Assembly (NCBI GenBank): GCA_964389905.1 | Contig: CAYMGD010000001.1 | Coordinates: 47,334-111,333, forward strand | Length of the DNA stretch: 64,000 bases | From: an uncultured Coprobacillus sp. | GTDB taxonomy: Bacteria > Bacillota_I > Bacilli_A > ML615J-28 > CAG-698 | Direction: 5' to 3' | Shown here: positions 2,308-29,342 of the stretch, one piece after another | Position numbering within the stretch: the stretch's first letter is position 1 | Layout: the number at the start of each line of letters is the position of its first letter | The notes under the pieces: generated by a model | What the model was told of the DNA's origin: nothing | The model's database searches: none | Seen by the model: the letters and a program-made list of their open reading frames with translations, nothing else | Program-made: the position numbers and the translations under genes

Positions 2308-3408
2308 ATGAAGAAAAATTCAAATAATAATTCTGTATATGAAAAAATTATAACAGCACTTAAAAGCCGAAAAGAAAAACTGATTGAATGGGATAAAGCA
2401 GCAGATAATTTTGCAAATACAGGAAGAATTGCAAAAGAAAACACTATTGAAAAGTTTATTAATAATGAAGTTAAAGCTGCAGAATATATAAATAGATTAT
2501 TAAACACAATAGGGCTAAAAAATATTCAAATTAATAAAGATGAAGTCAAAGAAAGTATAACTGATAGATATTCACATACTTTATTTACCTTTTTATTAGG
2601 ACTTTTAATATGTAAATTTAATAATTTAGAGGAAAAAATAGAAAACCATTATAAGAAGTATTTTGATAATCAAGAAGATGTTTTTCTTAAAGTATGGATT
2701 TTTACAGCAATATTTCATGATATTGGGTATGTTTATATTAGAAAGAATAATGCAAGAGGAATAACGAAGTTATCAGAAATAAATGCAAATAATAATATAT
2801 TTGATTATAAAGAAGGTAATGAAAAAACTCGTTATTCGCAAGATTTATTTGAAAATTATTTTAGTGCATATGCAAAATCAAAAACACTAGAAACAGAATA
2901 TTTGGAACATGGAATAACTGGTGGCTATGTTTTATTTAATAAGTTATTAGAAAGTAAAATAAAGTTGGAAGGTGTAAAAGAAAATTATCTTTACCAAAAT
3001 ATTTGCTATAGAATTATGGAACATAATATATGGAAAATAACTGATGATGCATTCTTTAAAGACTTCAATAAGCAGTTATTTAGAGAAATATCAGAAGATA
3101 ACTTTACAAAAATAGATGATAGCGAACCTTTGCTTTTTCTCCTAGCGTTATGTGATTCAATAGAACATGTAAAAAGGCTTTGGACAGCGAATAAAAACAA
3201 TGGTGAGAGAAATACACGGGTGCTAACTTTCGCAAAGAAAATAGAAATAGATGTAACTGAAGAATCAATAATTATAAGTTACAATAATGTGAAAGATGCT
3301 TTAGGCTTTGAAAGATGGAAAAGTGGCATAGAAGGATTAAGTGCTTGGCTTAATGTTAAATATAAAGATGAAAATAACCAGTGGGAGATAACTATTGATA
3401 AGAAGTAA
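2308..3408 (+). CDS. HD-domain-like hypothetical protein, paralog A (H..HD..H..H..D pattern)
   Basis: 366 aa. Motifs SHTLFTF, IFHDIGY, LEHGITGG, IMEHNIW, LCDSIEH. Clear paralog of 15511..16650 (shared HTLFTF-LG-LL-CKF, FLKVW, IFHD-GY, YLEHG-GGYVLF, YQNICYRIMEHNIWKITDD, EPLLFLL-LCD-IEHVK). Confidence 0.45.
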   Translation: MKKNSNNNSVYEKIITALKSRKEKLIEWDKAADNFANTGRIAKENTIEKFINNEVKAAEYINRLLNTIGLKNIQINKDEVKESITDRYSHTLFTFLLGLLICKFNNLEEKIENHYKKYFDNQEDVFLKVWIFTAIFHDIGYVYIRKNNARGITKLSEINANNNIFDYKEGNEKTRYSQDLFENYFSAYAKSKTLETEYLEHGITGGYVLFNKLLESKIKLEGVKENYLYQNICYRIMEHNIWKITDDAFFKDFNKQLFREISEDNFTKIDDSEPLLFLLALCDSIEHVKRLWTANKNNGERNTRVLTFAKKIEIDVTEESIIISYNNVKDALGFERWKSGIEGLSAWLNVKYKDENNQWEITIDKK

Positions 3409-3543
3409 TTTCATAAACATAAGATTATTTTAAATGTCTTATGTTTTTTTTATTGTTAACTGAAAATGTAGTTCAATTAATCTAGGCGTTTTCTAGGGAT
3501 AAAAGGGTAAAAACACAAATGAATATGGGATTCTGGGTAAATC

Positions 3544-3648
3544 TTAGGCACTTTTAGAAACAACAAGTGTTGCTCCCAGAAATATGCCATAAAGAACTGC
3601 AATAAGTCCTGTGTGACAGCGAAAAAGTTGATTTATATGTTTATTCAT
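3544..3648 (-). CDS. Possible small hydrophobic peptide (34 aa, one TM helix), unannotated
   Basis: Minus-strand ATG with a GGGGAAAC RBS. MNKHINQLFRCHTGLIAVLYGIFLGATLVVSKSA. Lies in the 470-nt intergenic region between the HD-like and SIR2-like genes. Confidence 0.2.
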   Translation of the reverse strand: MNKHINQLFRCHTGLIAVLYGIFLGATLVVSKSA

Positions 3649-3843
3649 TTAAGTTTCCCCATTTTTTATTAATATTATTTTTTTATATATTTTGTTAAGG
3701 TTATTACTTTAAAATATGATTAGAGCTATATATTTAATGTTCAAATTTAGTGAATAATTCATGAAATTTGCAATTTGAAACATCGATTTTCAATAAAAAT
3801 AGAACTTATAAAAAATTTGGGGAAACTCAAAGTTTATTCATCG

Positions 3844-3871
3844 TTGACAAATGAGGGGGGGGGTATAAAAT
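3844..3871 (+). promoter_or_regulatory. Promoter with a G9 homopolymer in the -35/-10 spacer (candidate phase-variable promoter)
   Basis: TTGACA (3844-3849), then a spacer containing GGGGGGGGG (3855-3863), then TATAAAAT/TATAAT, then ATG at 3881. Confidence 0.5.
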
Positions 3872-3880
3872 ATAATATAT

Positions 3881-5203
3881 ATGAAGGGGAAAAATACGTA
3901 TAATAAAATGGAAGAACAGAAGCATAATAAAATAACATTTATATTTGGAGCAGGTGCTGAAGGAAAGGATTATGGTTTATCTTGTGGGAATGAATTTAAA
4001 AAGAATATATTACTGTGTGAAAATGTTTTGCAAATTTATAAGTTAATTAATAATGAAGATAGATTAATTCCATTAAAAAATGGGTTATTGATAAGGCATA
4101 ATTCAAGTAGTACTTTATATCAAACTCTAAAAGAAAATGAATCTACTTTTACTGATAAATTTTCAGGTAAAACAAAAAGAATTATTAATAACTATTTTAA
4201 TTACAAAATTGGCAAATGCAATAAAGAAGAAAAAAAGATATATCCAAAAGAATTTCACAATTTGTTTAAAACGGAAATATATAATAAGTTAAAAAATAGT
4301 AACAAAACTTCATATAGTAAAATACTTGATTTTTATCTAAATAATTTGTCATTTTGTTCGTTTGTAGATTCTTTATTCAATTATTTAAGGGATACAAATA
4401 ATTACCCTAAAGAATGTGCTAGAGTAATAAAACTATATTATTCTGCTTTTGTCTCCATTATTTCATGTTTAGATGAAAACTTTTTGGCAAATACTGAAAA
4501 AATATGTGCTGACAAGGATATAATGACAAATAGAAAAATAATAATTGAAGAAATTGATGAATATATTGAAAAAAGAAAAGAAAAAGTTGAAAAGGAACAT
4601 AAAGAAAATGGTTCGGCTGAAGAAAAACAAAAACCATATTATGAAATATTAAAAGAGAAAATTAGTGAAAACAAACAAAACTTTCCAATAAGAGTAATAA
4701 CAACAAATTATACATCTATTTGTCAGAAAGTATTAGGCCTAGATGATAATTACATTGCATACGTACATGGTAAATTGAATTTATTTGAAAACTTAAAAAC
4801 TAAAGAAATAAAAGATATAAGGGAATTTAATAAAGATGATATTATTTTCCCCTATATGATGGTACAAAGTGGTGTTAAACCTGTTATTTCTCCTTACCAA
4901 ATAAAAGAATGGCACAAAGCAATAGAATTTTTAGAAAATAGTGAGTATATATTTGTATTAGGATATAGTTTTAAATCTGATGACGAACACTTTCAAACAA
5001 TAATAAGAGATAGCATCAATAATAAAATAATGGTATTTTTCTTATATGTTGAAGAAAAGAATAATGATACTCAAAAAACAAAAAATGAACTAGAAAGTAA
5101 GTTTAAATCAAAAGCAAAGAATATTTACTTTTTTAATACAAAAGAATTTGAAGAAATAATAAAAAAAGTAATTAATAATGAAAAATTAATTTCATCAATA
5201 TAA
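3881..5203 (+). CDS. SIR2-like (SIR2_2/DHS-like NAD-binding) domain protein A
   Basis: 440 aa, no signal peptide. Motifs FIFGAGAEGKDYGL, ITTNYTSI, YVHGKLN, VLGYSFKSDDEHF match the four SIR2_2 signature blocks (GAGxS, TTNYD, HG, GYSxxD). Putative catalytic N and H are present. Confidence 0.55.
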   Translation: MKGKNTYNKMEEQKHNKITFIFGAGAEGKDYGLSCGNEFKKNILLCENVLQIYKLINNEDRLIPLKNGLLIRHNSSSTLYQTLKENESTFTDKFSGKTKRIINNYFNYKIGKCNKEEKKIYPKEFHNLFKTEIYNKLKNSNKTSYSKILDFYLNNLSFCSFVDSLFNYLRDTNNYPKECARVIKLYYSAFVSIISCLDENFLANTEKICADKDIMTNRKIIIEEIDEYIEKRKEKVEKEHKENGSAEEKQKPYYEILKEKISENKQNFPIRVITTNYTSICQKVLGLDDNYIAYVHGKLNLFENLKTKEIKDIREFNKDDIIFPYMMVQSGVKPVISPYQIKEWHKAIEFLENSEYIFVLGYSFKSDDEHFQTIIRDSINNKIMVFFLYVEEKNNDTQKTKNELESKFKSKAKNIYFFNTKEFEEIIKKVINNEKLISSI

Positions 5204-5219: not shown

Positions 5220-7955
5220 ATGAAAACAAAGAAATTAATAATTGTTTTATTATTTGTATTGTTATTAGGAATAGGTTGTAACCAAAATAATAATGAAGGT
5301 AGCAAATGTAAGCATGAAATTGAAAGCGTTGCAAAACAAGATGCAACGTGTACAAAAGAAGGTAATCAAGAATATTATCATTGCACTAAATGCAATAAAT
5401 ATTATACTGACAAAGAATTAACTAATGAAAAAACATATGAAGAGTTAGTTATACAAAAAACAAAACATACTGAATCCGATTGGATTATTGATAATAATGC
5501 ATCTTGTACTGAAAAAGGACTAAAACATAAGGAATGTACAGTTTGCAAAGAAAAACTTCAAGAGGAATCGATAGATATTATTAAGCATAACTATACTGAA
5601 ATTATTATTGCACCTACTTGTGATACGCAAGGATATACTCTTTATACATGTAGTTGTGGCGATGAATATAAAGATAATTATGTTGATGCTATAGGACATA
5701 ATTATAGTGATTGGGAAATACTTAATGAAGCAACTGAAAAAGAAACAGGCTTAAAGATGAGGAAATGCTTAGTTTGTAATAAACAAGAAACAGAGATTAT
5801 ACCAATGGTTAGTCATATACATAATTATACCGAAAGCACTATTGCACCAACTTGTGATACGCAAGGGTACACATTACATACATGTGCTTGCGGGGATAAT
5901 TATAAAGATAATTATTTGAGTGCAATGGGGCACACATATAATGATGAAGGTAAAATAATACTTTTAGAAAATGATAAGAAAGCTGTAACAAGATATACTT
6001 GTGATAAATGCTCATATTTCAAAGATGAAGTATACTCTGGATACTATTTACAAAGTAATGGTTTGTTTTACTTTGATTATTTTGGGAATAGAATTGATTT
6101 GAATGAAATATTTGTTGAAGTTAATGGTAATACATATTATGTAATCAACAATATAATTGTAAAAAATTATTATATGATTGATGGGACAATATATAATTTT
6201 GGTAGTGATGGTATAAAACAAGATACAATTCTTACAAACAAAATCATAACATACGGAAATGATAAATATTATGTCATTAATAATGTAATACAAAAGAATA
6301 CGTACGAAGTATATGAACAAAATATTTATTACTTTGATGAAAATGGAAAAGCTATAAAAAATACTTCATATGAAGGCTATACTTTTGGTGTGAGTGGATA
6401 TTTATTAGGAAATGATATATTAATTAAAATTAATAATGTATTATACTATGTAGTTAACAATTCAGCAAGTGTTCATAATCATACAATAGAAAATAGTCAA
6501 TATAAAGCAGCAACTTGCACAGAAAATGGTAATTATGAATATTATCACTGTACAGAATGCAATAGATATTATTCAGATAGTAATTATATGAAGGAAATTA
6601 ATGCTGATGAAATTGTTATAAAAGCAAAACATAAAGTTACAAAATATGAAAGAAAAGAAAATACTTGCGTTGATAATGGAAACATAGAGTATTTCCACTG
6701 TACAAAATGTAATAAGTATTATCAAGATAGTTCTTGTACAAAGCAAATAGAATACGAAGATACTATTATAAAAGCATCACATAATATTACTAAATATGAA
6801 GGTAAAGAATCAACTTGTACTGAACAAGGATATAAAGCATATGAAAAATGTGCAAACTGTTCATATACAACATTTGAGTCTCTTCCATTAAAAGAGCATA
6901 CACTAACTGATTGGATAATAGATACAGAAGCAACTTGCACACAAACAGGAAGTAAACATAAAGAATGTAGTGCTTGTATGAAGATAATTGAAACAGAAAC
7001 AATTGCTGCTTTAGGGCATAATTATGTCAGTAATGTATGTACAAACTGTGAAAAAATGAAAGTAGAAATTAAAGATGGATATATTTATTTTGGTGAGTAT
7101 CCTCAAACACTAAAAGAAAAAACTGTGAAAATAACAAGCACTGAACCAGATGCTGATGGCTACTATTTAGGAAGTGATGGTGAAAGATATGCTAGGGTTA
7201 CTGCTAAACCTTATAAAAATACATATTACTTTAATGACAAAGTAACTAGTATTATTGATGGTGTAACATATTACTTCAAAGTAGAACCAATTAAATGGAA
7301 AATTGAAGAAGAAGGTAGTGGCCCATATAAACTAATAAGTGATCTAATTATAGATTGCCAAATGTATTATTCATCATTAGATAACAGAACAATAGATGGA
7401 CAAACAATATACGCTAATAACTATAAATATTCTGATATAAGAAGTTGGTTAAATAATGAATTTATAAACAAAGCATTTACTGAAGACCTTCAAGAATACA
7501 TAAATACGATAGGCGTATATAATGGGGCATCATCAATGGGGGCTTCAAGTGATAAATTTGCATGTGAGAATACATATGATAAAGTGTATTTACCAAGTTA
7601 TCAAGAAATGGTAAATGTGAATTATGGCTATAGTAAAAGTGTTTCTGACTCTGATTCAGCAAGACGAAAACAAGTAACAGATTATGCTAAAGCAATGGGT
7701 TGTTATATGAATACTGGAAGTACATATTATAATAATGGTTATTATTGGCTTCGTTCACCTATTATTTATAAAGGTACAACTTATTATAATAAAGATTATA
7801 GTTCATGTAGTTATTGTGCATATAGTATAGATTATTATGGAGATATTGCTAATGGTGTATATTCTACATCGGAAGGAATTTTTTATTTTCAAAATCACGA
7901 AGTAAATAAAGAATATCGTGGTGTTGCCCCCGCTTTAACAATCCAAATCTACTAA
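5220..7955 (+). CDS. Cys-rich repeat surface lipoprotein A with a C-terminal C-type-lectin-fold (DUF1566/FGE-like) domain. Carries a degenerate VR-like 3' end.
   Basis: 911 aa. Signal peptide plus lipobox LLLGIGCN. Repeated CxxxGxxEYYHCTKCNKYY and HNYTE-I-APTC-GYT-H-C-CGD-YKD-Y modules. C-terminus YIYFGEYPQTLKE...DYAKAMG...YYWLRS...GVAPALTIQIY is paralogous to the DGR target 9319..13683. RBS AGGAGG 8 nt upstream. Sits 17 nt after the SIR2-like gene. Confidence 0.6.
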   Translation: MKTKKLIIVLLFVLLLGIGCNQNNNEGSKCKHEIESVAKQDATCTKEGNQEYYHCTKCNKYYTDKELTNEKTYEELVIQKTKHTESDWIIDNNASCTEKGLKHKECTVCKEKLQEESIDIIKHNYTEIIIAPTCDTQGYTLYTCSCGDEYKDNYVDAIGHNYSDWEILNEATEKETGLKMRKCLVCNKQETEIIPMVSHIHNYTESTIAPTCDTQGYTLHTCACGDNYKDNYLSAMGHTYNDEGKIILLENDKKAVTRYTCDKCSYFKDEVYSGYYLQSNGLFYFDYFGNRIDLNEIFVEVNGNTYYVINNIIVKNYYMIDGTIYNFGSDGIKQDTILTNKIITYGNDKYYVINNVIQKNTYEVYEQNIYYFDENGKAIKNTSYEGYTFGVSGYLLGNDILIKINNVLYYVVNNSASVHNHTIENSQYKAATCTENGNYEYYHCTECNRYYSDSNYMKEINADEIVIKAKHKVTKYERKENTCVDNGNIEYFHCTKCNKYYQDSSCTKQIEYEDTIIKASHNITKYEGKESTCTEQGYKAYEKCANCSYTTFESLPLKEHTLTDWIIDTEATCTQTGSKHKECSACMKIIETETIAALGHNYVSNVCTNCEKMKVEIKDGYIYFGEYPQTLKEKTVKITSTEPDADGYYLGSDGERYARVTAKPYKNTYYFNDKVTSIIDGVTYYFKVEPIKWKIEEEGSGPYKLISDLIIDCQMYYSSLDNRTIDGQTIYANNYKYSDIRSWLNNEFINKAFTEDLQEYINTIGVYNGASSMGASSDKFACENTYDKVYLPSYQEMVNVNYGYSKSVSDSDSARRKQVTDYAKAMGCYMNTGSTYYNNGYYWLRSPIIYKGTTYYNKDYSSCSYCAYSIDYYGDIANGVYSTSEGIFYFQNHEVNKEYRGVAPALTIQIY

Positions 7956-8081
7956 AAGGAGCCTAATCATAAATTTAGGTAAAATACTAAAAAATGGAAT
8001 AAGATTAATTAGAAGAACATAAATCACAAAATTTTATTAAGTATTATAAAAAGAAAAAATTACATTAAGGAGTAATATTAT

Positions 8082-9287
8082 ATGAAAAATGCCTTTTTCT
8101 TTGGAGCAGGTGCGGAAGATATCTATGGTTTACCACTAGGTGGTGAATATGTGTTAGATACTATGATGACAAAAAAGCCAAAATTATATGATGAATTAGA
8201 AAAGTTTTACGAAGGTTCAAAAATAGAATATCAAAAGGAATTTCTATTTTCTTCAAATAGTAACACGTTTGCAAATATTTTATTGGATGCATATAAGACT
8301 TTTATAAATGAAAAAGATTATAAAAAAGATGAAAACTGTTTAATAGAAAAGATATTTAAAGATGTTGATTTTAAGTATGATGAATCTAAAAAAAAGGAAG
8401 ATATTCTAAAGAAAATAAAAGATAATTTAAGTCAAGAAAAAGATAAAGAACAATTGTTTGATATCATAATTAACAGAAAATATAATGATTCAGAATTGGA
8501 CAAGTTTTTTAAAAAATTAAAATATTATGGAACAATAGAAAAAGATTTTTCTTGCTTGCTTGATTATAATGCATATATAAAAAGAGCCTCAAGACTAATT
8601 AATTATTTTTGGAGCTGTTATTTTTCTATTTTTATACCATATCTAAAAGCATATTATGGAGAAGAAAAATTTTATAAAGAACTTTTTAATAAAGAAAATG
8701 GTAAATATAAATTTTTAAAAATTATAGAAGAATTAAAAAAAGCAAATATAAGTGATTTTAAAACAAAAAATAATGAAAAAAGTTATTACCAAGTCATAGC
8801 TGAAAAGTATACAGATAATACTTTTGCCATTACAACAAATTACACTTTCTTTGTTGAAAAAGCTTTTAAAAATAATATTTATTTAGCAGGCAAATTAGAC
8901 GAATTTGAGGAAATTGATACATTTATGGTTTCAAATGAATTGAGCAATAATTCTATTCCATTTTTATATACACAAGCTCCAATTAAACCAATTATTGCAT
9001 ATAAAACTATTGAAAAGTATTATAATGCGATGAATGAGATGAAAAATGCTAATAATATTTTTGTTATTGGGTATGGCTTTTGTAACGAGGATTCACACAT
9101 AAAAACGTTATTTTTAGAACTTAGACAACAAAATAAAAACTTAAACATAATTTATTGTGATTATGGAAGTAATGTGGAAAAAAATAGTAAATTTGAAGAG
9201 TATTTAAAAAAATTAAATGCCAAAATTGAATCATACAGTAATTGTGAAGAACTAATGAAAATAATTGATAAATATCAAATAAATTAA
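8082..9287 (+). CDS. SIR2-like (SIR2_2) domain protein B
   Basis: 401 aa. Motifs FFFGAGAEDIYGL, ITTNYTFF, VIGYGFCNEDSH. The HG position reads YLAGKL, so the conserved His appears to be replaced. Confidence 0.5.
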   Translation: MKNAFFFGAGAEDIYGLPLGGEYVLDTMMTKKPKLYDELEKFYEGSKIEYQKEFLFSSNSNTFANILLDAYKTFINEKDYKKDENCLIEKIFKDVDFKYDESKKKEDILKKIKDNLSQEKDKEQLFDIIINRKYNDSELDKFFKKLKYYGTIEKDFSCLLDYNAYIKRASRLINYFWSCYFSIFIPYLKAYYGEEKFYKELFNKENGKYKFLKIIEELKKANISDFKTKNNEKSYYQVIAEKYTDNTFAITTNYTFFVEKAFKNNIYLAGKLDEFEEIDTFMVSNELSNNSIPFLYTQAPIKPIIAYKTIEKYYNAMNEMKNANNIFVIGYGFCNEDSHIKTLFLELRQQNKNLNIIYCDYGSNVEKNSKFEEYLKKLNAKIESYSNCEELMKIIDKYQIN

Positions 9288-9318
9288 TATGAATTATAAG
9301 TAAATAACAGGAGGAAAA

Positions 9319-12300
9319 ATGAAAACAAGAAAACTATTGATATTTGTATTATTCATATTACTACTAGGAATAGGATGTAATAATACAAGAGAATGTGAGC
9401 ATACTATTGAAAATATTAAAGCACAAGAAGCAACTTGCATAAAGGAAGGTAATATTGAGTATTATTATTGTACTAAATGTAATAAGTATTACACTGATGA
9501 AAAATTAACTACTGAGGTAAAGCATGAAGACTTAGTGTTACAAAAAACAAGCCATACAGAATCAGATTGGATAATAGATACTGAAGCAACTTGTAGTAAT
9601 CAAGGGTTAAAACATAAAGAATGTACAGTATGTAAAGAAAAGTTACAAGAAGAAGTAATAGGAGAAACAGAACATAGTTACACTGAAACTATAATCAATC
9701 CAACATGTGAGAAAGAAGGTTATACTCTTCATAAATGTTTATGTGGCGATGAATATAAAGATACTTATGTTGAAGCCTTAGGACATACTGAAGAAATCAT
9801 TTCAGGAATTGATGCAACATGTACAGAAAGTGGCCTAACAGAAGGAAAGAAGTGTTCAGTTTGTGGAGAAATATTAGTAAAACAAGAAGTAATCAAAGCT
9901 AAAGGACATAATCATACAGAAACAGTTATAGCACCAACTTGTACAAAGCAAGGTTATACAATTCATACTTGCCACTGTGGAGATAGCTATAAAGATACTT
10001 ATGTAGATGCTTTAGGACATACTGAAGAAATCATTTCAGGATTAGATGCAACATGTACAGAAAGTGGGCTAACAGAAGGAAAGAAATGTTCAGTTTGTGG
10101 AGAAATATTAGTTAACCAAGAAGTAATAAAAGCAAAAGGTCATAATCATACAGAAACAGTTATAGCACCAACTTGTACAGAAGATGGCTATACAATTCAT
10201 AAATGCCACTGTGGAGATGAATATAAAGATACTTATGTAAATGCTTTAGGACATACAGAAGAAATCATTTCAGGATTAGAAGCAACATGTACAGAAAATG
10301 GTCTAACAGAAGGAAAGAAATGCTCAGCTTGTGGAGAAATATTAGTTAAACAAGAAGTAATAAAAATAAAAGAACATAACTATGGTGATTGGATAATAGT
10401 TAAGCCTGCAACTGAACAAGAAACAGGTTTAAAAACAAGAAAATGTCTTGACTGTGAGAAAGAAGAAACAGTAGAAATCCCAACGCTAGATCATATTCAT
10501 TCTTATGATGAAACAGTTATAGCACCAACATGTACAGAAGATGGCTATACAATTCATAAATGCCACTGTGGAGATGAGTATAAAGATACTTATGTAAATG
10601 CTTTAGGACATACAGAAGAAATTATTTCAGGATTAGAAGCAACATGTACAGAAAGTGGACTAACAGAAGGAAAGAAATGTTCAGTCTGTGGAGAAATACT
10701 AGTAAAACAAGAAGTAATCAAAGCTAAAGGACATAATCATAGTACAAGTAATATAGTGCTCTTAGATGAAGGCAATAAAGCAGTAACAAGATATTATTGC
10801 TCTAATTGTACTAGTTATAAAGATGAAATATATTCAGGATATTATTTACTAAATGATATTGCTTATGAATTTGATAATTCAGGTAATAGAATTAATTTAA
10901 ATGAATCATTTATAGAAGTAAATGGAAACACATATTATATAATTAATAATACTATTATAAAGAATTATTATATAATAGATGGAACAATCTATGACTTTGG
11001 TAGTGATGGAATAAAACAAGAAACTGTTCTAACAGATACAATTATTACATTTGAAGATAATTTATATTATGTTATTAATAACATAATCCAAAAAGAAGTA
11101 TTTATAGTTTATGAACAATGTATATATTTCTTTGATGAAACTGGTAAAGCATTAGTAAATACAACATATAATGGATATACATTTAATGCAAATGGATATT
11201 TAATAGGTAATGATATATTAATAGAAATTAACAAAGTATTATATTATGTTGTTAATAATATTGCATCAGTACATAATCATAGTTTAGAACACAAACTATA
11301 TAATCCTGCAACTTGTACAGCTGATGGTAATATAGAATATTTCTACTGCACAATATGTAATAGATTATATAAAGATAATGAATGTATTAATGAAATAACT
11401 AATGAAGATATTATTATAAAAGCATCACATAATATTACTAAATATGAAGGTAAAGAATCAACTTGTACTGAACAAGGATATAAAGCATATGAAAAATGTG
11501 CAAATTGTTCTTATACGACATTTACATATCTTCCATTAAAAGAACATACACTAACAGACTGGATAATAGATACTGAAGCAACATGTACACAAACAGGAAG
11601 TAAACATAAAGAATGTAGTGTTTGTGAGAATATTCTTGAAACAGAAACAATTGAAGTTTTTAATCATAACTATGAAAATGGAAAATGTACTATTTGTGGG
11701 AAAACACAAAACGCTTCTACAGAAAGTAAAATATGGCAAGATAATGGTTACGTTTATTTTGGAGAATATCCTCAAACACTAAAAGAAGAAAGTATAACAA
11801 TTGTTAGCGATACACCAAATAGTGATGGATATTATTTAGGTAGTGATGGTGAAAGATACGCAAAAGTTACTGCAAAACCATATAGTAGTTCATATTATTT
11901 TAATGGCAATGCATCAAAAATAGTAAAAGGAACAACATACTATTTCAAAGTAGAACCAATTAGATGGAAGATTGAAGAACAAAGTAATGACACATATAAA
12001 CTAATATGCGATTTAGTTATTGATTGTCAAATGTATTACTCATCTAAAAATGAAAGAACAATAGATGGACAAACAATATATGCTAATAATTATAAATATT
12101 CTGATATAAGAAGTTGGTTAAATAATGAATTCTTAAACAAAACATTTACTGAAGATCTTCAAGAATATATAAATGTAACAGAAGTTGATAATAGTGCTTT
12201 ATCAACTGGGTATTCAGAAAATGAATATGTTTGCGAAAACACAATGGATAAAATATATTTACCAAGTTACGAAGAAATGTGTAAATATGCATATGGTTAT

Positions 12301-13683
12301 AGTACTGATTCATTAGAAAAAGATTATGCAAGGCAAAAACAACTAACAGATTATGCCAAAGCAATGGGATGTAGTATGAATACAACTGATGACTATTACA
12401 ATAGTGGCAGCTATTGGCTTCGTTCATCAACAAACTATATAGGTACATATGTACGTGGAGTAAGCACAGATGGTTATGTATTTAATGATTATATTAATCA
12501 TAGTGGCGTTGGTGTTATTCCTTCAATGTCAATAACAAAAGATAATATTCCTTTTATGCATAATATAGTAAAGTGCGAAGGAAAAGAATCTACATGTACA
12601 GAATATGGATACGAACCATACGAAAAATGTATTGATTGTTCATATACAACATTTACATATCTTCCATTAAAAGAGCATACATTAACAGACTGGATAATCG
12701 ATTCACAAGCAACTTGTATGCAAACTGGAAGTAAACATAAAGAATGTACAGTATGTGAAAATGTTGTTGAGACGGAAACAATAGAAGCAATTGGTCATAA
12801 TTATATTAATAATATATGCACAAAATGCAATATTAAAAGGATTGAAGTTGGCGATAAAGAAATCTTAATAGGTACAGGTTATATCTATTTTGGCGAATAT
12901 CCTCAAACACTAAAAGAAGAAAGTGTAACAATTGTTAGTGATGCACCAGATAGTGATGGCTATTATCTAGGTAGTGATGGCGAAAGATATGCGAAAGTTA
13001 CTGCAAAACCATATCCTTATCCTTATAGTTCATATTACTTTAATGATAAAACAACAAAAATAGTAAAAGGAACAACATACTATTTCAAAGTTGAACCAAT
13101 TAGATGGAAAATTGAGGCACAAACCAATAGTACATATAAACTAATAAGTGATTTAATTATTGATTGTCAAAAATATCATTCATCAACATCAACAAGAACA
13201 ATAGATGGAAAAACAATATGTGCTAATAATTATGAATATTCTGATATAAGAAATTGGTTAAATAATGAATTCTTAAACAAAGCATTCCAAGAAGTTCTTC
13301 AAGAATATATAAATGTAACAGAAGTAGATAATAGTGCTTCATCAACTGAGTATTCAGAAAATAAATATGCTTGTGAAAATACAATGGATAAAATATATTT
13401 ACCAAGCCGTGCAGAAATGCTAAAAGCAGAATATGACTATAGAACAAGTTCTGGAGAAGATACAGCAAGACAAAAGCAACTAACAGATTATGCTAAAGCA
13501 ATGGGATGTTTTATGAATACAACTGATGATTACTACAATAACGGTTATTATTGGCTTCGCTCGCCTTTCAGCGACGACTCGGACGGCGCGTACTTCGTTC
13601 ACTACTATGGCAATGTGCGCAACTACTACGTCTACGACGTCAGCATTGGCGTCGCCCCCGCTTTAACAATCCAAATCGACTAA
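9319..13683 (+). CDS. DGR target protein. Cys-rich repeat surface lipoprotein B with two C-type-lectin-fold domains; the C-terminal one carries the variable repeat.
   Basis: 1454 aa. Lipoprotein signal LLLGIGCN. Internal 78-aa tandem repeats. Two copies of the YxYFGEYPQTLKE...YYWLRS module. The last 110 nt of the coding sequence match the TR apart from adenine positions. Confidence 0.8.
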   Translation: MKTRKLLIFVLFILLLGIGCNNTRECEHTIENIKAQEATCIKEGNIEYYYCTKCNKYYTDEKLTTEVKHEDLVLQKTSHTESDWIIDTEATCSNQGLKHKECTVCKEKLQEEVIGETEHSYTETIINPTCEKEGYTLHKCLCGDEYKDTYVEALGHTEEIISGIDATCTESGLTEGKKCSVCGEILVKQEVIKAKGHNHTETVIAPTCTKQGYTIHTCHCGDSYKDTYVDALGHTEEIISGLDATCTESGLTEGKKCSVCGEILVNQEVIKAKGHNHTETVIAPTCTEDGYTIHKCHCGDEYKDTYVNALGHTEEIISGLEATCTENGLTEGKKCSACGEILVKQEVIKIKEHNYGDWIIVKPATEQETGLKTRKCLDCEKEETVEIPTLDHIHSYDETVIAPTCTEDGYTIHKCHCGDEYKDTYVNALGHTEEIISGLEATCTESGLTEGKKCSVCGEILVKQEVIKAKGHNHSTSNIVLLDEGNKAVTRYYCSNCTSYKDEIYSGYYLLNDIAYEFDNSGNRINLNESFIEVNGNTYYIINNTIIKNYYIIDGTIYDFGSDGIKQETVLTDTIITFEDNLYYVINNIIQKEVFIVYEQCIYFFDETGKALVNTTYNGYTFNANGYLIGNDILIEINKVLYYVVNNIASVHNHSLEHKLYNPATCTADGNIEYFYCTICNRLYKDNECINEITNEDIIIKASHNITKYEGKESTCTEQGYKAYEKCANCSYTTFTYLPLKEHTLTDWIIDTEATCTQTGSKHKECSVCENILETETIEVFNHNYENGKCTICGKTQNASTESKIWQDNGYVYFGEYPQTLKEESITIVSDTPNSDGYYLGSDGERYAKVTAKPYSSSYYFNGNASKIVKGTTYYFKVEPIRWKIEEQSNDTYKLICDLVIDCQMYYSSKNERTIDGQTIYANNYKYSDIRSWLNNEFLNKTFTEDLQEYINVTEVDNSALSTGYSENEYVCENTMDKIYLPSYEEMCKYAYGYSTDSLEKDYARQKQLTDYAKAMGCSMNTTDDYYNSGSYWLRSSTNYIGTYVRGVSTDGYVFNDYINHSGVGVIPSMSITKDNIPFMHNIVKCEGKESTCTEYGYEPYEKCIDCSYTTFTYLPLKEHTLTDWIIDSQATCMQTGSKHKECTVCENVVETETIEAIGHNYINNICTKCNIKRIEVGDKEILIGTGYIYFGEYPQTLKEESVTIVSDAPDSDGYYLGSDGERYAKVTAKPYPYPYSSYYFNDKTTKIVKGTTYYFKVEPIRWKIEAQTNSTYKLISDLIIDCQKYHSSTSTRTIDGKTICANNYEYSDIRNWLNNEFLNKAFQEVLQEYINVTEVDNSASSTEYSENKYACENTMDKIYLPSRAEMLKAEYDYRTSSGEDTARQKQLTDYAKAMGCFMNTTDDYYNNGYYWLRSPFSDDSDGAYFVHYYGNVRNYYVYDVSIGVAPALTIQID
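9781..10740 (+). repeat. Near-identical 234-bp (78-aa) tandem coding repeats (3 contiguous units plus a 4th after a ~120-bp insert)
   Basis: Units begin GGACATAC(T/A)GAAGAAATCATTTCAGG at 9781, 10015, 10249 and 10605, about 90-95% identical at DNA level (GHTEEIISG-DATCTESGLTEGKKCSVCGEILVKQEVIKAKGHNHTETVIAPTCT-GYTIH-CHCGD-YKDTYV-ALG). Confidence 0.8.
13549..13660 (+). repeat. DGR variable repeat (VR), in frame at the 3' end of 9319..13683
   Basis: 112 nt align to the TR at 14201..14312. There are about 21 mismatches; all but one lie where the TR has A (TR AAC codons vs VR TTC/AGC/GAC/GGC/CAC/TAC/CGC). Confidence 0.85.
13641..13680 (+). promoter_or_regulatory. IMH-like element (GC-rich ATTGGCGTCGCCCCCG core plus VR-specific CTTTAACAATCCAAATC)
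   Basis: The 14-nt GC-rich core is shared with the TR 3' end. The flanking 3' sequence differs (TR: ATTTATCTTAC), as expected for IMH vs IMH*. Confidence 0.6.
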
Positions 13684-13701
13684 AAGGAGATAAATCAATG
13701 G

Positions 13702-13745
13702 GGTTGGCCTCTCTAATCTTAAGCTTTAGCTTAGAGAGGCCAACC
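13702..13745 (+). repeat. Perfect 15-bp inverted repeat (hairpin/cruciform) 18 nt downstream of the VR stop
   Basis: GGTTGGCCTCTCTAA - 14 nt loop - TTAGAGAGGCCAACC. No T-run follows, so it is not a typical terminator. Matches the position of the hairpin that assists DGR retrohoming. Confidence 0.7.
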
Positions 13746-13762
13746 AGAAAAATTTAGAAAAA

Positions 13763-14146
13763 ATGCCAAAAATAAGAAAAGAAACAGAATTAAGAGTTAT
13801 AACAAGTACTAAAAAATTAGTTGATTATGTATTAACAGTAACAGAAAAAAGTCCTAAAAAGTATAGATACACTTTTGTAGAGAGAATTCATACTATATTA
13901 TTTGATTTAGTTGAATGTCTTTATAGAGCTAATATTGAAAAATTAGGAAATCCTAAAAGACAAGAATATCAAAAAGATGCATTAGTATGCTTACAGTTAC
14001 TAGATTATTTTTGTGATATTGCAGTTGATGAGAAATGTTTAATATTTAGACAATATGAAAACATATCAGAAATGATTTGTACAACAACTAATTTATTAAA
14101 TAGTTGGATATTAAGTGATTTAAGAAGAATCAATGAAAAGAAATAA
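13763..14146 (+). CDS. avd: DGR accessory variability determinant (Avd-like four-helix-bundle protein)
   Basis: 127 aa, basic and predicted helical. Sits between the VR and TR as in canonical DGR cassettes. Confidence 0.65.
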   Translation: MPKIRKETELRVITSTKKLVDYVLTVTEKSPKKYRYTFVERIHTILFDLVECLYRANIEKLGNPKRQEYQKDALVCLQLLDYFCDIAVDEKCLIFRQYENISEMICTTTNLLNSWILSDLRRINEKK

Positions 14147-14200
14147 TAATAATAATAATAATTATTATTATGGGGATAAGGTTGTAAAACTAGTGGAGGG

Positions 14201-14312
14201 TATTGGCTTCGCTCGCCTAACAACAACAACTCGAACAACGCGTACAACGTGAACAACAATGGCAATGTGAACAACAACAACGTCAACAACGACAACATTG
14301 GCGTCGCCCCCG
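14201..14312 (+). repeat. DGR template repeat (TR), AAC-codon rich
   Basis: TATTGGCTTCGCTCGCCT then AAC AAC AAC AAC TCG AAC AAC GCG TAC AAC GTG AAC AAC AAT ... ATTGGCGTCGCCCCCG. Non-coding, between avd and the RT. Confidence 0.85.
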
Positions 14313-14513
14313 ATTTATCTTACTAGTAGATGAAATAATCTATGGATTTACAGAATAATATTTTAGGTAAAATATTACAGTTTTAAGATAAAGGAACTTT
14401 ATTCCCTGTTATTAAATAACTAAATATAACCACTTGTACTAGTGACTTCATTAATGAATTTACTAGTTGAGCATAATGAATGTCAAGTGGTTTTCTTTTT
14501 TAAAGGAAGACTT

Positions 14514-15521
14514 ATGAAAACATATGATGAAGTATTCACATTTAGAAATCTATACAAAGCTCATAAAAAGGCAAGACTTTCCAAAAGAAACAAAAAAGAA
14601 GTCATTGAATTTGAGTTAGATGTTGGTAATAATATTTGGAAGCTAAAAAAGGAACTTAATAATCGAACTTACAAAGTGAAAGATTATCATCACTTTATGA
14701 TATACGAACCAAAGAAACGAAAAATAGAAGCATTATCATATAGTGATAGAGTACTTCAACACTGTATTGTTGATGAGTATTTGATGGAAATATTAGAAAG
14801 ACATCTAATATATGATAATGGTGCTTGTAGGAAGGGAAAAGGAACAGATTTCTGCAGAAAAAGAGTTAAATCCTTTCTTACTTCCTTCTACAAACAACAT
14901 AACATAAATGGCTACGTTTTACAGTTTGATATTCATCATTACTTCGAATCAATTAAACATAATATCCTAAAAGAAAAGATTAAGAAAATTGTTAAAGAAA
15001 AAGAAATCTTAAGTTTATTGAATGCAATAATAGATTCATATTCAGATTATGAAAATTCTGGTTTACCAATAGGAAATCAAACAAGCCAATGTTTTGCATT
15101 ATATTATTTAGATGGAATAGATCGCCTCATCAAAGGAAAATATCAAATGAAGTATTATTCAAGATATATGGATGATGGCATTATCATATGTGAAAGTAAA
15201 GATAAAGTAAGAAGTTTATTAAATGATATTACTAAAGAATGTGAAATAATAGGACTAAAACTTAATGAAACTAAAACAAGAATATATAAGTTAAAAGAAG
15301 GATTTACGTATTTAGGTTTTAGATATATGATTTTATCTAATGGCAAAATACTAATGAAAATACCCAAAGCTAAAAAACAAAGAATAAAAAGATATTTAAA
15401 AACATTAGATGATACAAAAGATAGAATAGTTTTCTATAAAGATTATTTATTAAAAGGTAATAATTATATGTTTTATCAAACAATTAGAAATAATACAAAA
15501 AGGAAGAAATATGGAAACTAA
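14514..15521 (+). CDS. DGR reverse transcriptase
   Basis: RT motifs including YMDDGII (motif C) and the DGR-typical IGNQTSQ motif. RBS AAAGGAAG before the ATG at 14514; the six-frame ORF extends back to 14442. Confidence 0.8.
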   Translation: MKTYDEVFTFRNLYKAHKKARLSKRNKKEVIEFELDVGNNIWKLKKELNNRTYKVKDYHHFMIYEPKKRKIEALSYSDRVLQHCIVDEYLMEILERHLIYDNGACRKGKGTDFCRKRVKSFLTSFYKQHNINGYVLQFDIHHYFESIKHNILKEKIKKIVKEKEILSLLNAIIDSYSDYENSGLPIGNQTSQCFALYYLDGIDRLIKGKYQMKYYSRYMDDGIIICESKDKVRSLLNDITKECEIIGLKLNETKTRIYKLKEGFTYLGFRYMILSNGKILMKIPKAKKQRIKRYLKTLDDTKDRIVFYKDYLLKGNNYMFYQTIRNNTKRKKYGN

Positions 15522-16735: not shown

Positions 16736-17809
16736 ATGAACACTAATGAAAATACTGAAAAAATAAAGTTTTTTAGAGGAGAGTCTAAAGAATATGAACA
16801 ACCGTGTACACCAACGCTTTTTAGATTCTTGAATGGATGTAATAATTTACTATTACTTGAGAAGGCTTATTATGAACTTTCTATGAATCATATAAATATG
16901 TTTAATTTTACATCAAAAAAAGATGAACTATTGAAGTATATATATAATGTATGCTTTATGCAACATTATGGCTTTGGTACTAGGCTACTTGATATCACTG
17001 AAACAAAAGATGTAGCATATTATTTCGCTAGTTGTTCAAATTTTGATCGAGATGGATATGTTTATTCATTTGAGGTAAGTGAGGATATGAAGTTTTTTAA
17101 GAGTGCTGAAGCAGAAACAGTAAGAAGAAAGTTCTTATGTATTAAAAATATAAGTACAGAAAATAAATGCATTATCAATCTCATTGAGAATGAGACAGAT
17201 AATGTCATTCGTTATAATACTATAACTAACAATGCAATATTAAAGTATGAAAGTTTATTTGATATTTTGCCAGAAAATATAAGATATCAAAGACAAAATG
17301 GAGCATTCATTGTCCCAGGCAACAGATTAGAAGGTGATAACATTAGTGATGAACATAATGTTATAATGGGGAAAAAAGAAAATCTAGTTAAAAGCATTGA
17401 TAAAATAGATGAGTTATATAAACTATGTTTCGAAAATGATAAACATATAAATCACGTATATTTATTTCCAGATGACGATAATAGTTTATACCTTTGTTCT
17501 AGATATAATCTATTTATAAATAGTTACTATAATCAAAAAAGTAATTTATTTAAAAATATTTACACTAAGTTTTACCTAGATAATGATGAAAGTAAATATC
17601 CTAAAGAGCATTTTGAAAACAATTCAGTTTTATTTGAAGAATTAACCAATGAATATGCATTTTATTTTTTCTTTATTGAAATGAAAGATTGTTTATTCTA
17701 TATATTAGAAGATGCAACTAAAATTAATAAGTTTTTCAAAGAAAATAAAGAAAAAACTATCAAAGAACTAATTGAACAAGCAAAAAAACTTATAAGAGGA
17801 AAATTATGA
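16736..17809 (+). CDS. FRG-domain protein
   Basis: N-terminal FFRGESKEYEQPCTPTLFR and QHYGFGTRLLDITETKDVAYYFA match the FRG-domain consensus (FRGq ... QHYGLPTRLLDWT ... AlyFA). RBS GAGGAAA before the ATG at 16736; an alternative ATG lies at 16715. Confidence 0.5.
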   Translation: MNTNENTEKIKFFRGESKEYEQPCTPTLFRFLNGCNNLLLLEKAYYELSMNHINMFNFTSKKDELLKYIYNVCFMQHYGFGTRLLDITETKDVAYYFASCSNFDRDGYVYSFEVSEDMKFFKSAEAETVRRKFLCIKNISTENKCIINLIENETDNVIRYNTITNNAILKYESLFDILPENIRYQRQNGAFIVPGNRLEGDNISDEHNVIMGKKENLVKSIDKIDELYKLCFENDKHINHVYLFPDDDNSLYLCSRYNLFINSYYNQKSNLFKNIYTKFYLDNDESKYPKEHFENNSVLFEELTNEYAFYFFFIEMKDCLFYILEDATKINKFFKENKEKTIKELIEQAKKLIRGKL

Positions 17810-18180
17810 ACTATAAAAAATTAATATTAATAAGTATTATTTGTATTATTACTAGGAATAGGTTGTAACAAAGATAATACATATAAACATGAAATTGAAT
17901 GCATTGCTAGCAAACAAGCAACTTGTACAAAAGAAGGTAACATTGAATATTTTCACTGTTTAAAGTGCGATAAATATTATAGTGATAAAGAATTTACTAA
18001 AGAAAAAAACTCTTAAAGAATTAGTTATTTAAAAGACAAATTATATTGAGTCTGATTGGATAATTGATAAAAACCCTTCATATTGAGACAAGGAAAGTAA
18101 ACATAAAGAATGCACTGAGTGTGGCATAGTAACTACAACAGAAATAATAGAAGCTAAAAATATTAAATATGCTTTTAAAG
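17810..18180 (+). pseudogene. Decayed third paralog of the Cys-rich lipoprotein family (frameshift in the signal peptide, premature stop, deletions)
   Basis: MNYKKLILISIICII then a frameshift. The +1 frame gives LLLGIGCNKDNTYKHEIECIASKQATCTKEGNIEYFHCLKCDKYYSDKEF then a stop. Further remnants SDWIIDKN...GSKHKECTECG lie downstream in other frames. Starts 1 nt after the FRG gene stop. Confidence 0.7.
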
Positions 18181-18486
18181 AAGCATCTATTCCTTCAAAA
18201 GGATTACTATTTTGATTTTCACCATAAACTTTATATAAAAACCTAATCTTAAAAGTTGCCTTATGTAAGGCATCTTTTACTTTGGAAAACAACTGTGAAA
18301 ACTTTTTAAAGGATTGTTTATGGACTAAAAAATATCATAATGACTTTTTACTTAATTTTGTTTAGGTGAATCCTTTTATACGTGTATAATTATTATACAA
18401 AATTTAGGTATAAAGATATATAAAAATTGTATATTAATATATATAAAATCGTCTTGATAATAGTAGGCATTTGTAGTATAATTTAT

Positions 18487-23100: not shown

Positions 23101-23925
23101 CAAAGAACTTATCTCTATGTATTTTAGAATAGGGAAAATTATAGACGAAAATGCAGAATATGGCAACGGATTTATTAATGAATTATCGAAACATCTAAAA
23201 TTAGAATTTCCTAACGCCAACGGATATTCTCCGAGAAATTATGCAAGAATGCGCATAATTTTATATTGATTGAAAAAGTAAAAGATTTGGATATGCGCAT
23301 TTGGTATGCAGAGAAATGTATTGAAAACGGTTGGAGCAAGGTTGTTTTAGAACATCAAATTGATTTGCAATTATATGAAAGGCAAGCAGATTCATCTAAA
23401 AAATTGACGAATTACGAAAGTCGATTGCCTTCACCACAAAGCGAACTTTCTCGCGATATTATTAAAGATCCGTATATTTTCGAACTCGTGGGTTTAAAAG
23501 AAAAAATCGTAGAAAAAGATATAGAAAAGGCAATGCTTGAACAAATAAAAACGGTATTGCTCGAACTTGGCAAGGGATTTTCGTTTGTTGGAAATCAATA
23601 TATGATTTCAACACCGAATAATGATTACTTGATAGATTTATTGTTTTATCATTTGGAACTTCGTTGTTATGTCGTTGTGGAATTGAAAAATGCAGATTTT
23701 AAGCCAGATTTTGTTGGACAGTTGCAGTTCTATATTACGGCTGTGGATGAAACGTTAAAAAAAGAACAAGATAATTCAACAATAGGATTATTGCTTTGTA
23801 GAGGAAGAGATAGATATTCGGTGGAATGGTCGCTTAAATCGACAACTGCGCCGATTGGTGTCGCTTCTTATGAAATAAGAAATTATTTACCGACTGAAGA
23901 AGAGTTAAATAGATATTTAAAATAA
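23101..23925 (+). pseudogene. DUF1016 (YhcG-like PD-(D/E)xK nuclease) paralog, N-terminally disrupted
   Basis: 23266..23925 is collinear with residues ~120-333 of the intact copy 25640..26641 (WSKVVLEHQI..LYERQ.., LELGKGFSFVGNQY, LRCYVVVELK, IGLLLC). Nucleotides 23101-23265 encode the preceding segment (GYSPRNYARM) in another frame, with an internal deletion. Confidence 0.65.
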
Positions 23926-24030
23926 AATGGAGGCCTTGAGATAGAACATAAGTTTTTTATAACCATTCAAACAAAATGAAGATGTAAAAGCATAGTAAAA
24001 GTTATATTAAAATAATATTTATATGAATTG

Positions 24031-24059
24031 TTGACATATCCCATGAGATATGATAAAAT
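24031..24059 (+). promoter_or_regulatory. Sigma-70 promoter (TTGACA -17- TAAAAT)
   Basis: Canonical hexamers. Followed by the 5'UTR hairpin TTTCACC-aaatc-GGTGAAA, then RBS GGAGG. Confidence 0.5.
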
Positions 24060-24092
24060 TATTTCACCAAATCGGTGAAACGGAGGATTATA

Positions 24093-25160
24093 ATGAAACA
24101 AAATTATTGTGAAAACCAATATATACAATTAGCAAAACAATTGTTTTATGAAACTCTTAATAAAATACCTTATGTATCAAATGTTGAAATAAGAAATATA
24201 AATACAAAAGATGAATTTGGTAGTTTTTATGCTCTTGTTAAATACTCTGATACTGATGATTCACAAAAATTTTGCATTGAGGTTAAGTCTAATGGTGAAA
24301 GAAGATATGTTAATACATTTATGGAAGTGGCTTCAAAATTTGATGATGCCTGTTATGTCTTTATGGCTCCATATATATCTGAATCTTCAGCAGTTAGTTT
24401 GATTAATAATTGCAATAGTTTTATGGATTTGTCAGGCAACTGTTATATACTAACAAAACGAATAATTATGCATTATCAAGGCAAAGAAAACAAATATCTC
24501 TTAAAAAAAGAGAAAAAACAATATTTTTCAAAGTCTTCTTCAGTTGCATCACAGATTATGCGAACAATGTTAGATAAGCCATATGAACGATGGGGAGTTA
24601 AATCATTATCAGAAATGACTGGTAAGGCAATCGGAACTGTATCAAATGTAAAAAACTTCTTAAAAGAGCGTTTATGGATAGAAGAATATCAGAATGGTTT
24701 TGAACTAAAAAACATTAAAGAACTATTATGTGAATGGTCAAAAGATTATCATAAAAAAGATTCACTTATATATGAATATTATTCATTGGATTCTATACCT
24801 GAAATTGAAAAACATATATCCGAATGGAATATGATTAATAATAGTAAAGTATATTTAGGGTATTTCTCAGCAGCTGATAGATATGCACCAACTGTTCGAT
24901 ATCAAAGAATAAACTTATATGTTGATTTACAGCTTCTAACAAAATTTATAGAATATTTAGATCTAAAACCAGTTGAATTTGGAGGTAATGTTATTATTAC
25001 AATTCCTCACGATGAAACTGTAGAAATGTTTTCACGAAAAATAAAGGAAGACTATGTTACATCACCAGTTCAAACTGTAATTGATTTATTAGGAGATGCA
25101 GGCAGGGGAGAAGAGGCTGCAGAAACAATTATTTTGAAGGAATATGGTGAAAAAGTATGA
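24093..25160 (+). CDS. Hypothetical protein (possible N-terminal PD-(D/E)xK-like motif plus a wHTH-like middle region)
   Basis: RBS CGGAGG 6 nt before the ATG at 24093. YSDTDDSQKFCIEVKS resembles a D..E.K nuclease core. No family recognised with confidence. Confidence 0.3.
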   Translation: MKQNYCENQYIQLAKQLFYETLNKIPYVSNVEIRNINTKDEFGSFYALVKYSDTDDSQKFCIEVKSNGERRYVNTFMEVASKFDDACYVFMAPYISESSAVSLINNCNSFMDLSGNCYILTKRIIMHYQGKENKYLLKKEKKQYFSKSSSVASQIMRTMLDKPYERWGVKSLSEMTGKAIGTVSNVKNFLKERLWIEEYQNGFELKNIKELLCEWSKDYHKKDSLIYEYYSLDSIPEIEKHISEWNMINNSKVYLGYFSAADRYAPTVRYQRINLYVDLQLLTKFIEYLDLKPVEFGGNVIITIPHDETVEMFSRKIKEDYVTSPVQTVIDLLGDAGRGEEAAETIILKEYGEKV

Positions 25161-25639
25161 AATATTAAAAGGCTACTTTTGAGAAATGGTTATGAAAAAC
25201 ATCATCAAAAGTATTTTACGTTTGTAAAGACAATAGTAATTGATAGTGCTTCACAACTGGAGGCAATTTTGCTTTTGATTGTCTTTCATATAATGTTAAA
25301 ATTGAATATATTCGTCAGGATGGTATATTTGATTACGGACATATACGAGTTATTTCAATTGTACCATATATAATAATGAAAACTTTAACACTTGGCTGTG
25401 GTGAACCGAACTAGATCATTCTGGACCCATTGATAGAGTAAAATTTTTAGGCGCTACGGGGAGTGAAGCTTTAAGAATAAAACAAGATTCTTATCAAAAA
25501 GTTAAATATCTTGTGGAAAAGATAAAAAATTAATTGAAAAATTAAAAATAAAGTATTAACAAGCATAATAAAAGCTATTGATGAATTATGCTTTTTGTAT
25601 TATACTATAATTGTAATTTTGTAATAATGAGGTAATTCT

Positions 25640-26641
25640 ATGCTTATAAACGATAATCAATATATAGGTGTAATCGAATCTATAAAGACTGAAATATCCA
25701 AAGCTCAATATAATGCCACATTGCAGGTGAATAAAGAACTTACTTTGTTGTATTATCATATTGGTTGCATTATTAACGAGCATAAATCGTGGGGAAACAA
25801 GTTCATAGATAATCTTGCCAGAGATATTAAACTTGCATATCCGAGCAGCACGGGCTATTCGGTAAGAAACTTAAAATATATGGCAAAATTTGCCACAGCC
25901 TATGATGAACAATTTGTGCAACAAGCTGCTGCACAAATTCCGTGGGGGCATAACATTGTTTTGCTTGATAAGATAGCCGATGTATCAATTCGCAAATGGT
26001 ATATAGGAAAAATTATAGAAAACGGTTGGTCGCGCAGCGTACTGGTTCATCAAATTGAAAGTGGATTGTATGAAAGACAAAAGGTAGCACAAAAGATAGC
26101 CAACTTTGAAAAGGTTTTGCCTACACCACAAAGTGAACTTGCTATGCAAGCGATGAAAGATCCCTATGTATTCGATTTTATTCCTCTCAAGGATGATATG
26201 GTCGAGCGTGATATCGAAAGCGCTCTTGTAAAAGACGTTACAGCTCTTTTATTGGAACTAAGCACGGGTTTTGCTTTTCTTGGAAATCAATATCATTTGA
26301 ACGTGGGAGGCGATGATTTTTATATTGATTTACTATTTTATAATCTTAATCTTCGTTGCTATGTTGTAATCGAATTAAAAACAGGTGAATTTAAGCCTGA
26401 ATACGCTGGACAACTGAATTTTTATCTTTCTGCCGTTGATGGTCAGTTGAAAAAGGAAAACGACAATCCCACTATCGGGTTGTTGCTGTGCAAAAGTAAA
26501 AATAATTTAGTTGCAGAATATTCTTTGAAAGATATGAGCAAGCCTATGGGAATTAGCGAATACAAAATAAGCAGCGTATTGCCTAAAGAATTAAACTATC
26601 AACTCCCATCGGTAGAAGATATTCAAAAACGTATAAAATAA
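25640..26641 (+). CDS. DUF1016 / YhcG-family PD-(D/E)xK nuclease (intact copy)
   Basis: 333 aa. Conserved blocks WSRSVLVHQIESGLYERQ, PYVFDFIPL, GFAFLGNQY, LRCYVVIELK, IGLLLCK. Confidence 0.6.
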   Translation: MLINDNQYIGVIESIKTEISKAQYNATLQVNKELTLLYYHIGCIINEHKSWGNKFIDNLARDIKLAYPSSTGYSVRNLKYMAKFATAYDEQFVQQAAAQIPWGHNIVLLDKIADVSIRKWYIGKIIENGWSRSVLVHQIESGLYERQKVAQKIANFEKVLPTPQSELAMQAMKDPYVFDFIPLKDDMVERDIESALVKDVTALLLELSTGFAFLGNQYHLNVGGDDFYIDLLFYNLNLRCYVVIELKTGEFKPEYAGQLNFYLSAVDGQLKKENDNPTIGLLLCKSKNNLVAEYSLKDMSKPMGISEYKISSVLPKELNYQLPSVEDIQKRIK

Positions 26642-26713
26642 ATTAGTCTTATAAAAAATGTGGTTTTACTATCTGTAAAGAACTCTTGTGATGATAACAA
26701 AAGTTCTTGACAG

Positions 26714-27193: not shown

Positions 27194-27195
27194 AT

Positions 27196-29321: not shown

Positions 29322-29342
29322 AGTACACCTCATAATTATTCT

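Follow-up and report, generated by a model that had tools for sequence, protein, structure and literature searches.

A run of nine guanines occupies nine of the 16 spacer positions of a near-consensus promoter at the head of a gene cluster that encodes SIR2-fold proteins, surface lipoproteins and a DGR, and we regard it as an evenly balanced proposition that this tract serves as a length-variable promoter switch of the cluster. The window, that is, the whole stretch of 64,000 bases analysed here, carries the tract at positions 3855–3863, and a second copy of the locus is found on the Logan contig L011 (from run SRR25400530), which encodes the protein P0002. The terminator hairpin, the promoter and the genes of the cluster described below lie on the plus strand. 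The tract itself is real and, judging from the comparison of these two copies, is part of a functional-looking unit; from this arrangement we infer its variation in length, the dependence of expression on it and the extent of the operon.

Read directly from the sequence, the region runs 5' to 3' as ATCG, TTGACA, AATGA, GGGGGGGGG, TA, TAAAAT, ATAATATAT and ATG. The nine consecutive G thus lie between TTGACA and the ATG at 3881, and are followed on their 3' side by TATAAAATATAATATAT, which leads to that ATG; a second in-frame ATG stands at 3908. This agrees with the original prediction, which had placed TTGACA at 3844–3849, AATGA at 3850–3854, the G run at 3855–3863 and the start codon at 3881, and which had put the GC content around the tract at about 28%, against the 28.1% that we measure for the window. 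Its view that the tract sits within a promoter spacer is supported; its -10 hexamer, on the other hand, needs correction, as TATAAT (3871–3876) would give a spacer of 21 nt, and TATAAA (3864–3869) one of 14 nt. The correct partner of TTGACA (a 6/6 match, identical in L011) is TAAAAT at 3866–3871 (5/6), 16 nt away. Together the two hexamers form an 11/12 match to a sigma-70-type promoter, the best one that a promoter scan returned between 3300 and 5400, and the only strong intergenic promoter-like site on the plus strand from 3.3 to about 18 kb. By the geometry of the hexamers, transcription would start near 3877–3880. The window holds six other intergenic, gene-oriented sites that match at 11 or more of 12 positions (24031, 29919, 41351, 52692, 55801 and 58602), three of them perfect, and every one has a 17-nt spacer. 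The host therefore appears to use the canonical geometry, and the spacer with nine G, at 16 nt, is one base short of it; ten G would make 17.

The perfect TATAAT hexamer, only 4 nt in front of ATG 3881, is relevant under one different reading of this region, in which it is the true -10 element, the mRNA is leaderless and begins at or near ATG 3881, TTGACA is not a -35 element, and the G run becomes an upstream element whose length is of little weight. A Shine–Dalgarno sequence at the usual distance of 4–9 nt is absent for ATG 3881 and ATG 3908 alike, whereas most genes of the window have one, and the gene caller chose the equivalent of ATG 3881 for P0002. However, no acceptable -35 hexamer lies 16–18 nt upstream of TATAAT, while TTGACA is already accounted for by its 11/12 pairing with TAAAAT, and the conservation shared with L011 starts at about TTGACA. 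The choice of start codon bears on the same point. From ATG 3881, gene A (3881–5203) would encode 440 amino acids, of which residues 1–14 are predicted to be disordered; the public annotation (P0001) begins at ATG 3908 and gives 431 amino acids, and the N-termini of the family favor the same codon. ATG 3881, moreover, follows the -10 hexamer TAAAAT at a distance of just 10 nt. We consider a leaderless transcript improbable and favor ATG 3908 as the more probable start of gene A, which would leave a leader of about 30 nt.

That the cluster depends on a promoter of its own follows from what lies upstream. A terminator-like hairpin at 3415–3454, with an 11-bp stem (3415–3425 paired with 3436–3446) followed by a U run, has a minimum free energy of -10.1 kcal/mol and a z score of -3.86, and none of 200 shuffled sequences was equally stable; it closes the upstream gene (2308–3408), and so the genes behind it require a separate promoter. 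The predicted promoter TTGACA-16-TAAAAT probably drives them. The placement of the tract in the promoter spacer of the SIR2-like/lipoprotein cluster, as originally put forward, is supported by this terminator, by the conservation of the block described below and by the lack of another strong promoter on the same strand. No second copy of the promoter block occurs elsewhere in the window. Further downstream, no plus-strand terminator-like site was detected before 18257, in a scan that demands three G-C pairs and is therefore blind to hairpins rich in A and T, of which the hairpin at 3415 is an example.

We also considered that the tract might act in the RNA, with GAGGGGGGGGG serving a transcript whose start is farther upstream, either as a Shine–Dalgarno-like sequence or as an element of the 5' UTR. 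The GAGG/GGGG letters do resemble a Shine–Dalgarno core, but the G run is 17–24 nt from ATG 3881 and farther still from ATG 3908, compared with 4–9 nt for the genes of the window. There is, in addition, no upstream promoter common to the window and L011, no Rfam match even at a permissive threshold, and nothing unusual in the structure of the leader, all of which makes an RNA-level role very improbable. A switch by translational frameshifting was rejected as well: the tract is outside the open reading frame, no change of frame joins it to gene A because a TAA at 3866–3868 stands in the gene's frame, and the reading frames that do cross the tract are short and not conserved.

The tract stands out sharply from the sequence around it. 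It is the sole run of six or more G or C in the entire window, where the next longest has five, and under a first-order Markov model the expected number of runs of at least nine is 0.0065 for G and 0.0002 for C per window. Related contigs, 135 kb in all, contain a single run of at least six G or C, the homologous G9 of L011. Homopolymer tracts of this length are intrinsically prone to slippage; slippage is expected from about 7–8 G/C on, and the run of nine G is uninterrupted both in the window and in L011. Other simple-repeat loci were not found in the window. Such a low expectation speaks against a chance occurrence. Two-colour Illumina chemistry is able to produce poly-G, but the tract lies in the interior of a contig of 150 kb, and the same nine G in the same context are present in L011, an independent assembly of another run, which excludes a sequencing or assembly artefact for the tract. 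Overall, chance or artefact is an extremely improbable explanation.

P0002 is, apart from the window's own annotated protein, the nearest relative of the gene A product (53% identity), and the agreement between the two loci is concentrated around the promoter. L011 has an identical ATCGTTGACAAATGA-G9-TATAAAATATAATATATATGAAGGG, with its tract at 166–174, and over window positions 3840–3888, which span the -35 hexamer, the tract, the -10 hexamer and the ATG, all 49 bases are the same. The conserved promoter/5' block extends over 3840–3977 with 132 of 138 positions identical, in comparison with 84.5% for the upstream flank at 3529–3643 (P = 3e-5) and about 61% for the 70 nt after 3977. It begins at 3840, four bases 5' of the -35 hexamer, and reaches about 23 codons into the gene as counted from ATG 3908 (about 32 from ATG 3881). 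Such a block would be either strongly constrained or recently exchanged.

The difference between the two loci upstream of 3840 is due to a 183-nt insertion in the window (3649–3831, without an assigned strand). It looks like a MITE because it has imperfect terminal inverted repeats, with the core AGTTTCCCCA, and is flanked by a 10-bp duplication, the direct repeat GTTTATTCAT at 3639–3648 and 3832–3841; its 3' end is 2 nt from the -35 hexamer. The insertion is absent from L011 and has no further copy in the window. Beyond it, the non-coding block at 3529–3643 (L011 33–147) is 84% conserved and has a GC content above that of its surroundings. It has neither an Rfam match nor a conserved open reading frame, and may represent the remains of a gene or encode a small RNA. 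We do not count as a gene the 34-aa open reading frame on the minus strand (3544–3648), which starts inside the target duplication and lacks a conserved counterpart in L011.

A search for further copies brought no difference in length to light. It left two copies of the tract in all, those of the window and of L011, both with nine G in consensus assemblies, which hide minority lengths. A DNA pattern that allows any tract length had no match in genome contigs or viral contigs, and among metagenome contigs it returned two unrelated chance promoters. A protein scan of genome contigs for gene A gave no further locus, a query with its N-terminal 60 amino acids no matches, and a viral profile scan and BLAST against plasmids and phages nothing. 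The contig of a related strain, L026, ends about 1.7 kb before the tract. Upstream of the gene A homologues at the P0003, P0004 and P0007 loci, where the upstream regions are ordinary, a G/C tract is absent, and these tract-less loci include one in a Coprobacillus-labelled MAG. Homologous loci in other lineages thus do without the tract, and we take it to be specific to a sub-lineage and not a trait of the family. The host is rare: in clustering at 90% identity, most of the host proteins that we looked up have no cluster partner. The closest matches of the host FeoB (77%) come from MAGs that carry the labels "Bacilli bacterium" and "Acholeplasmataceae bacterium".

The main alternative is that the G run is a fixed element. 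It would be the spacer of a promoter that is either constitutive or regulated, and maybe a protein-binding site too, and would stay at nine G because of selection or because a portable block of 138 nt underwent gene conversion recently, with no use as a switch. We see this as a serious possibility, though on the unlikely side. It fits with the uninterrupted G9 in both copies, with a block far more conserved than its flanks, with the lack of any other simple-repeat locus in the window and with the homologous loci that manage without a tract. Against it, G and C runs otherwise reach no more than five bases in 64 kb; they are strictly avoided, which makes nine G surprising in a spacer of neutral sequence, and a tract of this length is, as noted above, inherently liable to slip. 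A shared modal length is also seen at proven tracts: that of tprL in T. pallidum is mostly G9 in every strain, with lengths from 7 to 11 coexisting (PMC7864442). For this reason, two copies with nine G are weak evidence against switching.

In the switch that we propose, the G tract accounts for the greater part of the 16-nt spacer in a near-consensus promoter of the housekeeping sigma type, which would start transcription of SIR2-fold gene A, lipoprotein A, SIR2-like gene B and lipoprotein B, and probably of the DGR cassette as well. Since the length of the tract determines how far apart the -35 and -10 hexamers lie and in what rotational register, each G gained or lost would shift the strength of the promoter stepwise, and single-G gains and losses would arise by slipped-strand mispairing at replication. 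The state present, nine G, has a 16-nt spacer; a tenth G would bring it to the 17 nt found at every other strong promoter of the window, eight G (15 nt) would be weak, and with 12 or more the promoter would be off. As a result, the level at which the cluster is expressed would vary among cell lineages in a heritable but reversible manner.

The cluster encodes products typical of those that contingency loci control, namely surface lipoproteins, here with a lectin domain that is diversified by a DGR. The first gene encodes a predicted cytoplasmic protein of the SIR2 fold. Its profile matches, to the AbiH and SIR2 HMMs, are weak, but its AlphaFold2 model (pLDDT 84.8) finds the SIR2 subunits of SIR2-HerA (E values of 7e-7 to 1e-4) and sirtuins as top Foldseek matches, and on this basis the label "SIR2-like" stands. 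In the family alignment GAG.E is invariant, as are N276 and G297, and H296 is nearly so (the HG motif). With an N-terminal GAGxS/E loop, a conserved His and the SIR2 Rossmann fold, gene A is predicted to encode a SIR2 (sirtuin-fold) protein of the defence type.

The same-strand cluster, gene A included, extends over roughly 14 kb. Lipoprotein A (5220–7955) has the signal MKTKKLIIVLLFVLLLGIGC and a C-terminal DUF6273 domain, which is C-type-lectin-like. SIR2-like gene B (8082–9287) is preceded by a canonical AAGGAG Shine–Dalgarno sequence 9 nt upstream, and is followed by lipoprotein B (9319–13683), a protein of 1454 amino acids with two DUF6273 domains that is the DGR target, with its VR at 13549–13665. 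Just 3' of the VR, in the usual position of a DGR target hairpin, there is a GC-rich inverted repeat (13702–13746), and then come the bAvd accessory gene (13763–14146; PF22296, 2.2e-11), an AAC-codon-rich template repeat (TR) of 117 nt (14201–14317) and the DGR reverse transcriptase (14442–15521; RVT_1, 3.9e-22). TR and VR are 80% identical, and every core mismatch falls at an adenine of the TR. By these sequence features, 13549–15521 is a complete DGR, with reverse transcriptase, bAvd and TR, and with the VR located 3'-terminally in the target gene. DUF6273 has been described as a C-type-lectin-like DGR target domain (PMC10743442; bioRxiv 10.1101/2024.10.15.618418). The genes are separated by gaps of 16, 126, 31 and 79 nt, and gaps this short make a single long transcript from the G9 promoter plausible, one that would run on into the downstream modules. 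The original prediction had already allowed for such read-through; the DGR and its target lipoprotein, identified here from the reverse transcriptase, bAvd and the TR/VR pair, had escaped it.

A related strain (L012, 1–404), 94% identical over window positions 7939–9373, has a lipoprotein A equivalent whose C-terminus matches the TR (window 14200–14317; compared with 7590–7955) and which thus carries a VR. In lipoprotein A of the window, similarity is left only in the last ~50 nt (7919–7969), and the likeness to the TR is lost. At 17806 begins a third lipoprotein-type gene with the same signal-peptide sequence (17806–18270), which is frameshifted and riddled with stops and therefore a pseudogene. 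A terminator-like hairpin follows at 18257–18272, and after it an open reading frame with PLAT domains that has its own TTGATA-17-TATAAT promoter at 18454–18482.

Among known systems, the closest case appears to be TP0126 of T. pallidum, a spirochaete pathogen with a genome of about 53% GC. According to PMC7864442, which cites Giacani 2015 (PMC4432754), TP0126 has a poly-G run between its -35 and -10 elements and is transcribed best with a 17-nt spacer. TP0126, tprE/G/J and tprL resemble the window in having a promoter G homopolymer, of about 8–11, and surface or outer-membrane products. They differ in that T. pallidum has many poly-G tracts, with length variation and reporter effects established by experiment, whereas the window has one tract, in DNA of 28% GC and in front of a putative operon that includes a DGR. 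The porA (poly-G) and opc (poly-C) genes of N. meningitidis likewise have a homopolymer in the spacer, and their expression is graded by its length. The position of the tract, between -35 and -10, is as predicted for the window; N. meningitidis, however, is Gram-negative and has dozens of contingency loci with documented switching rates. In M. hyorhinis, as reported in PMC10502178 with reference to Citti and Wise 1995, insertions and deletions in a promoter poly-A tract switch the surface lipoproteins of the vlp family. Surface lipoproteins, a promoter homopolymer and the low-GC Mollicutes/Bacilli branch are common to both. The vlp system, unlike the window, has poly-A, a tract for each vlp gene and unrelated proteins, as opposed to one poly-G in front of a multi-gene cluster whose first gene encodes a cytoplasmic SIR2-fold protein.

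On the side of the DGR, the location of the VR at a DUF6273 C-terminus places lipoprotein B beside the C-type-lectin-fold targets Mtd of BPP-1, TvpA of T. denticola and the DUF6273 "tentaclins"; in contrast to these, the target-type genes of the window are each preceded by a SIR2-fold gene. In our literature search, no DGR with a homopolymer switch in its upstream promoter was described. What is unusual here is the host lineage and a candidate switch before a DGR with SIR2-paired lectin lipoproteins.

A broader model can be drawn from these parts, with two layers of diversification at a single locus of an uncultured Acholeplasma-like gut bacterium. In it, a slippage-prone G tract stochastically gates or tunes a cluster whose surface lectin-lipoprotein is rewritten by the DGR, every lipoprotein gene has a SIR2-fold gene as its partner, and the 138-nt block is a conserved, exchangeable expression site before highly diverged SIR2 alleles; as a whole we hold this model to be doubtful. 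If the tract does switch, it would exemplify phase variation by a simple repeat in a commensal-type, uncultured lineage close to the Mollicutes and, as far as the searched literature shows, be the first promoter homopolymer before a cluster with a DGR. Cells would hedge their bets on expressing a product whose ligand-binding surface hypermutates, which would bear on how both DGR activity and the cost of variable surface proteins are controlled. If it does not switch, the G9 promoter would be an ordinary one of unusual appearance.

Two further observations concern the neighborhoods of gene A and its homologues. In the Coprobacillus-like loci (L001/L002, from 11446), a gene A homologue has nearby a TIR_2-DUF6273 fusion protein, with genes for an RNase III-like protein and a resolvase between the two, so the link of an NADase-type domain with a lectin-like domain, fused or neighboring, recurs. 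An invertible segment near this resolvase was considered as a parallel switch and rejected, as the contigs are collinear; the sole length difference located among them, an upstream one of 1 nt, is a haplotype-linked T4/T5 indel. In the window itself, 23266–40484 looks like a defence/mobile-element island, with two YhcG/PDDEXK nucleases, an AbiEi-like protein, an IS21 IstB with a Mu-transposase fragment, an AAA_21/AbiEii-like ATPase and an Abi_2 protein; the end of the related strain's contig L026 at about window position 2180 suggests that the island is strain-variable.
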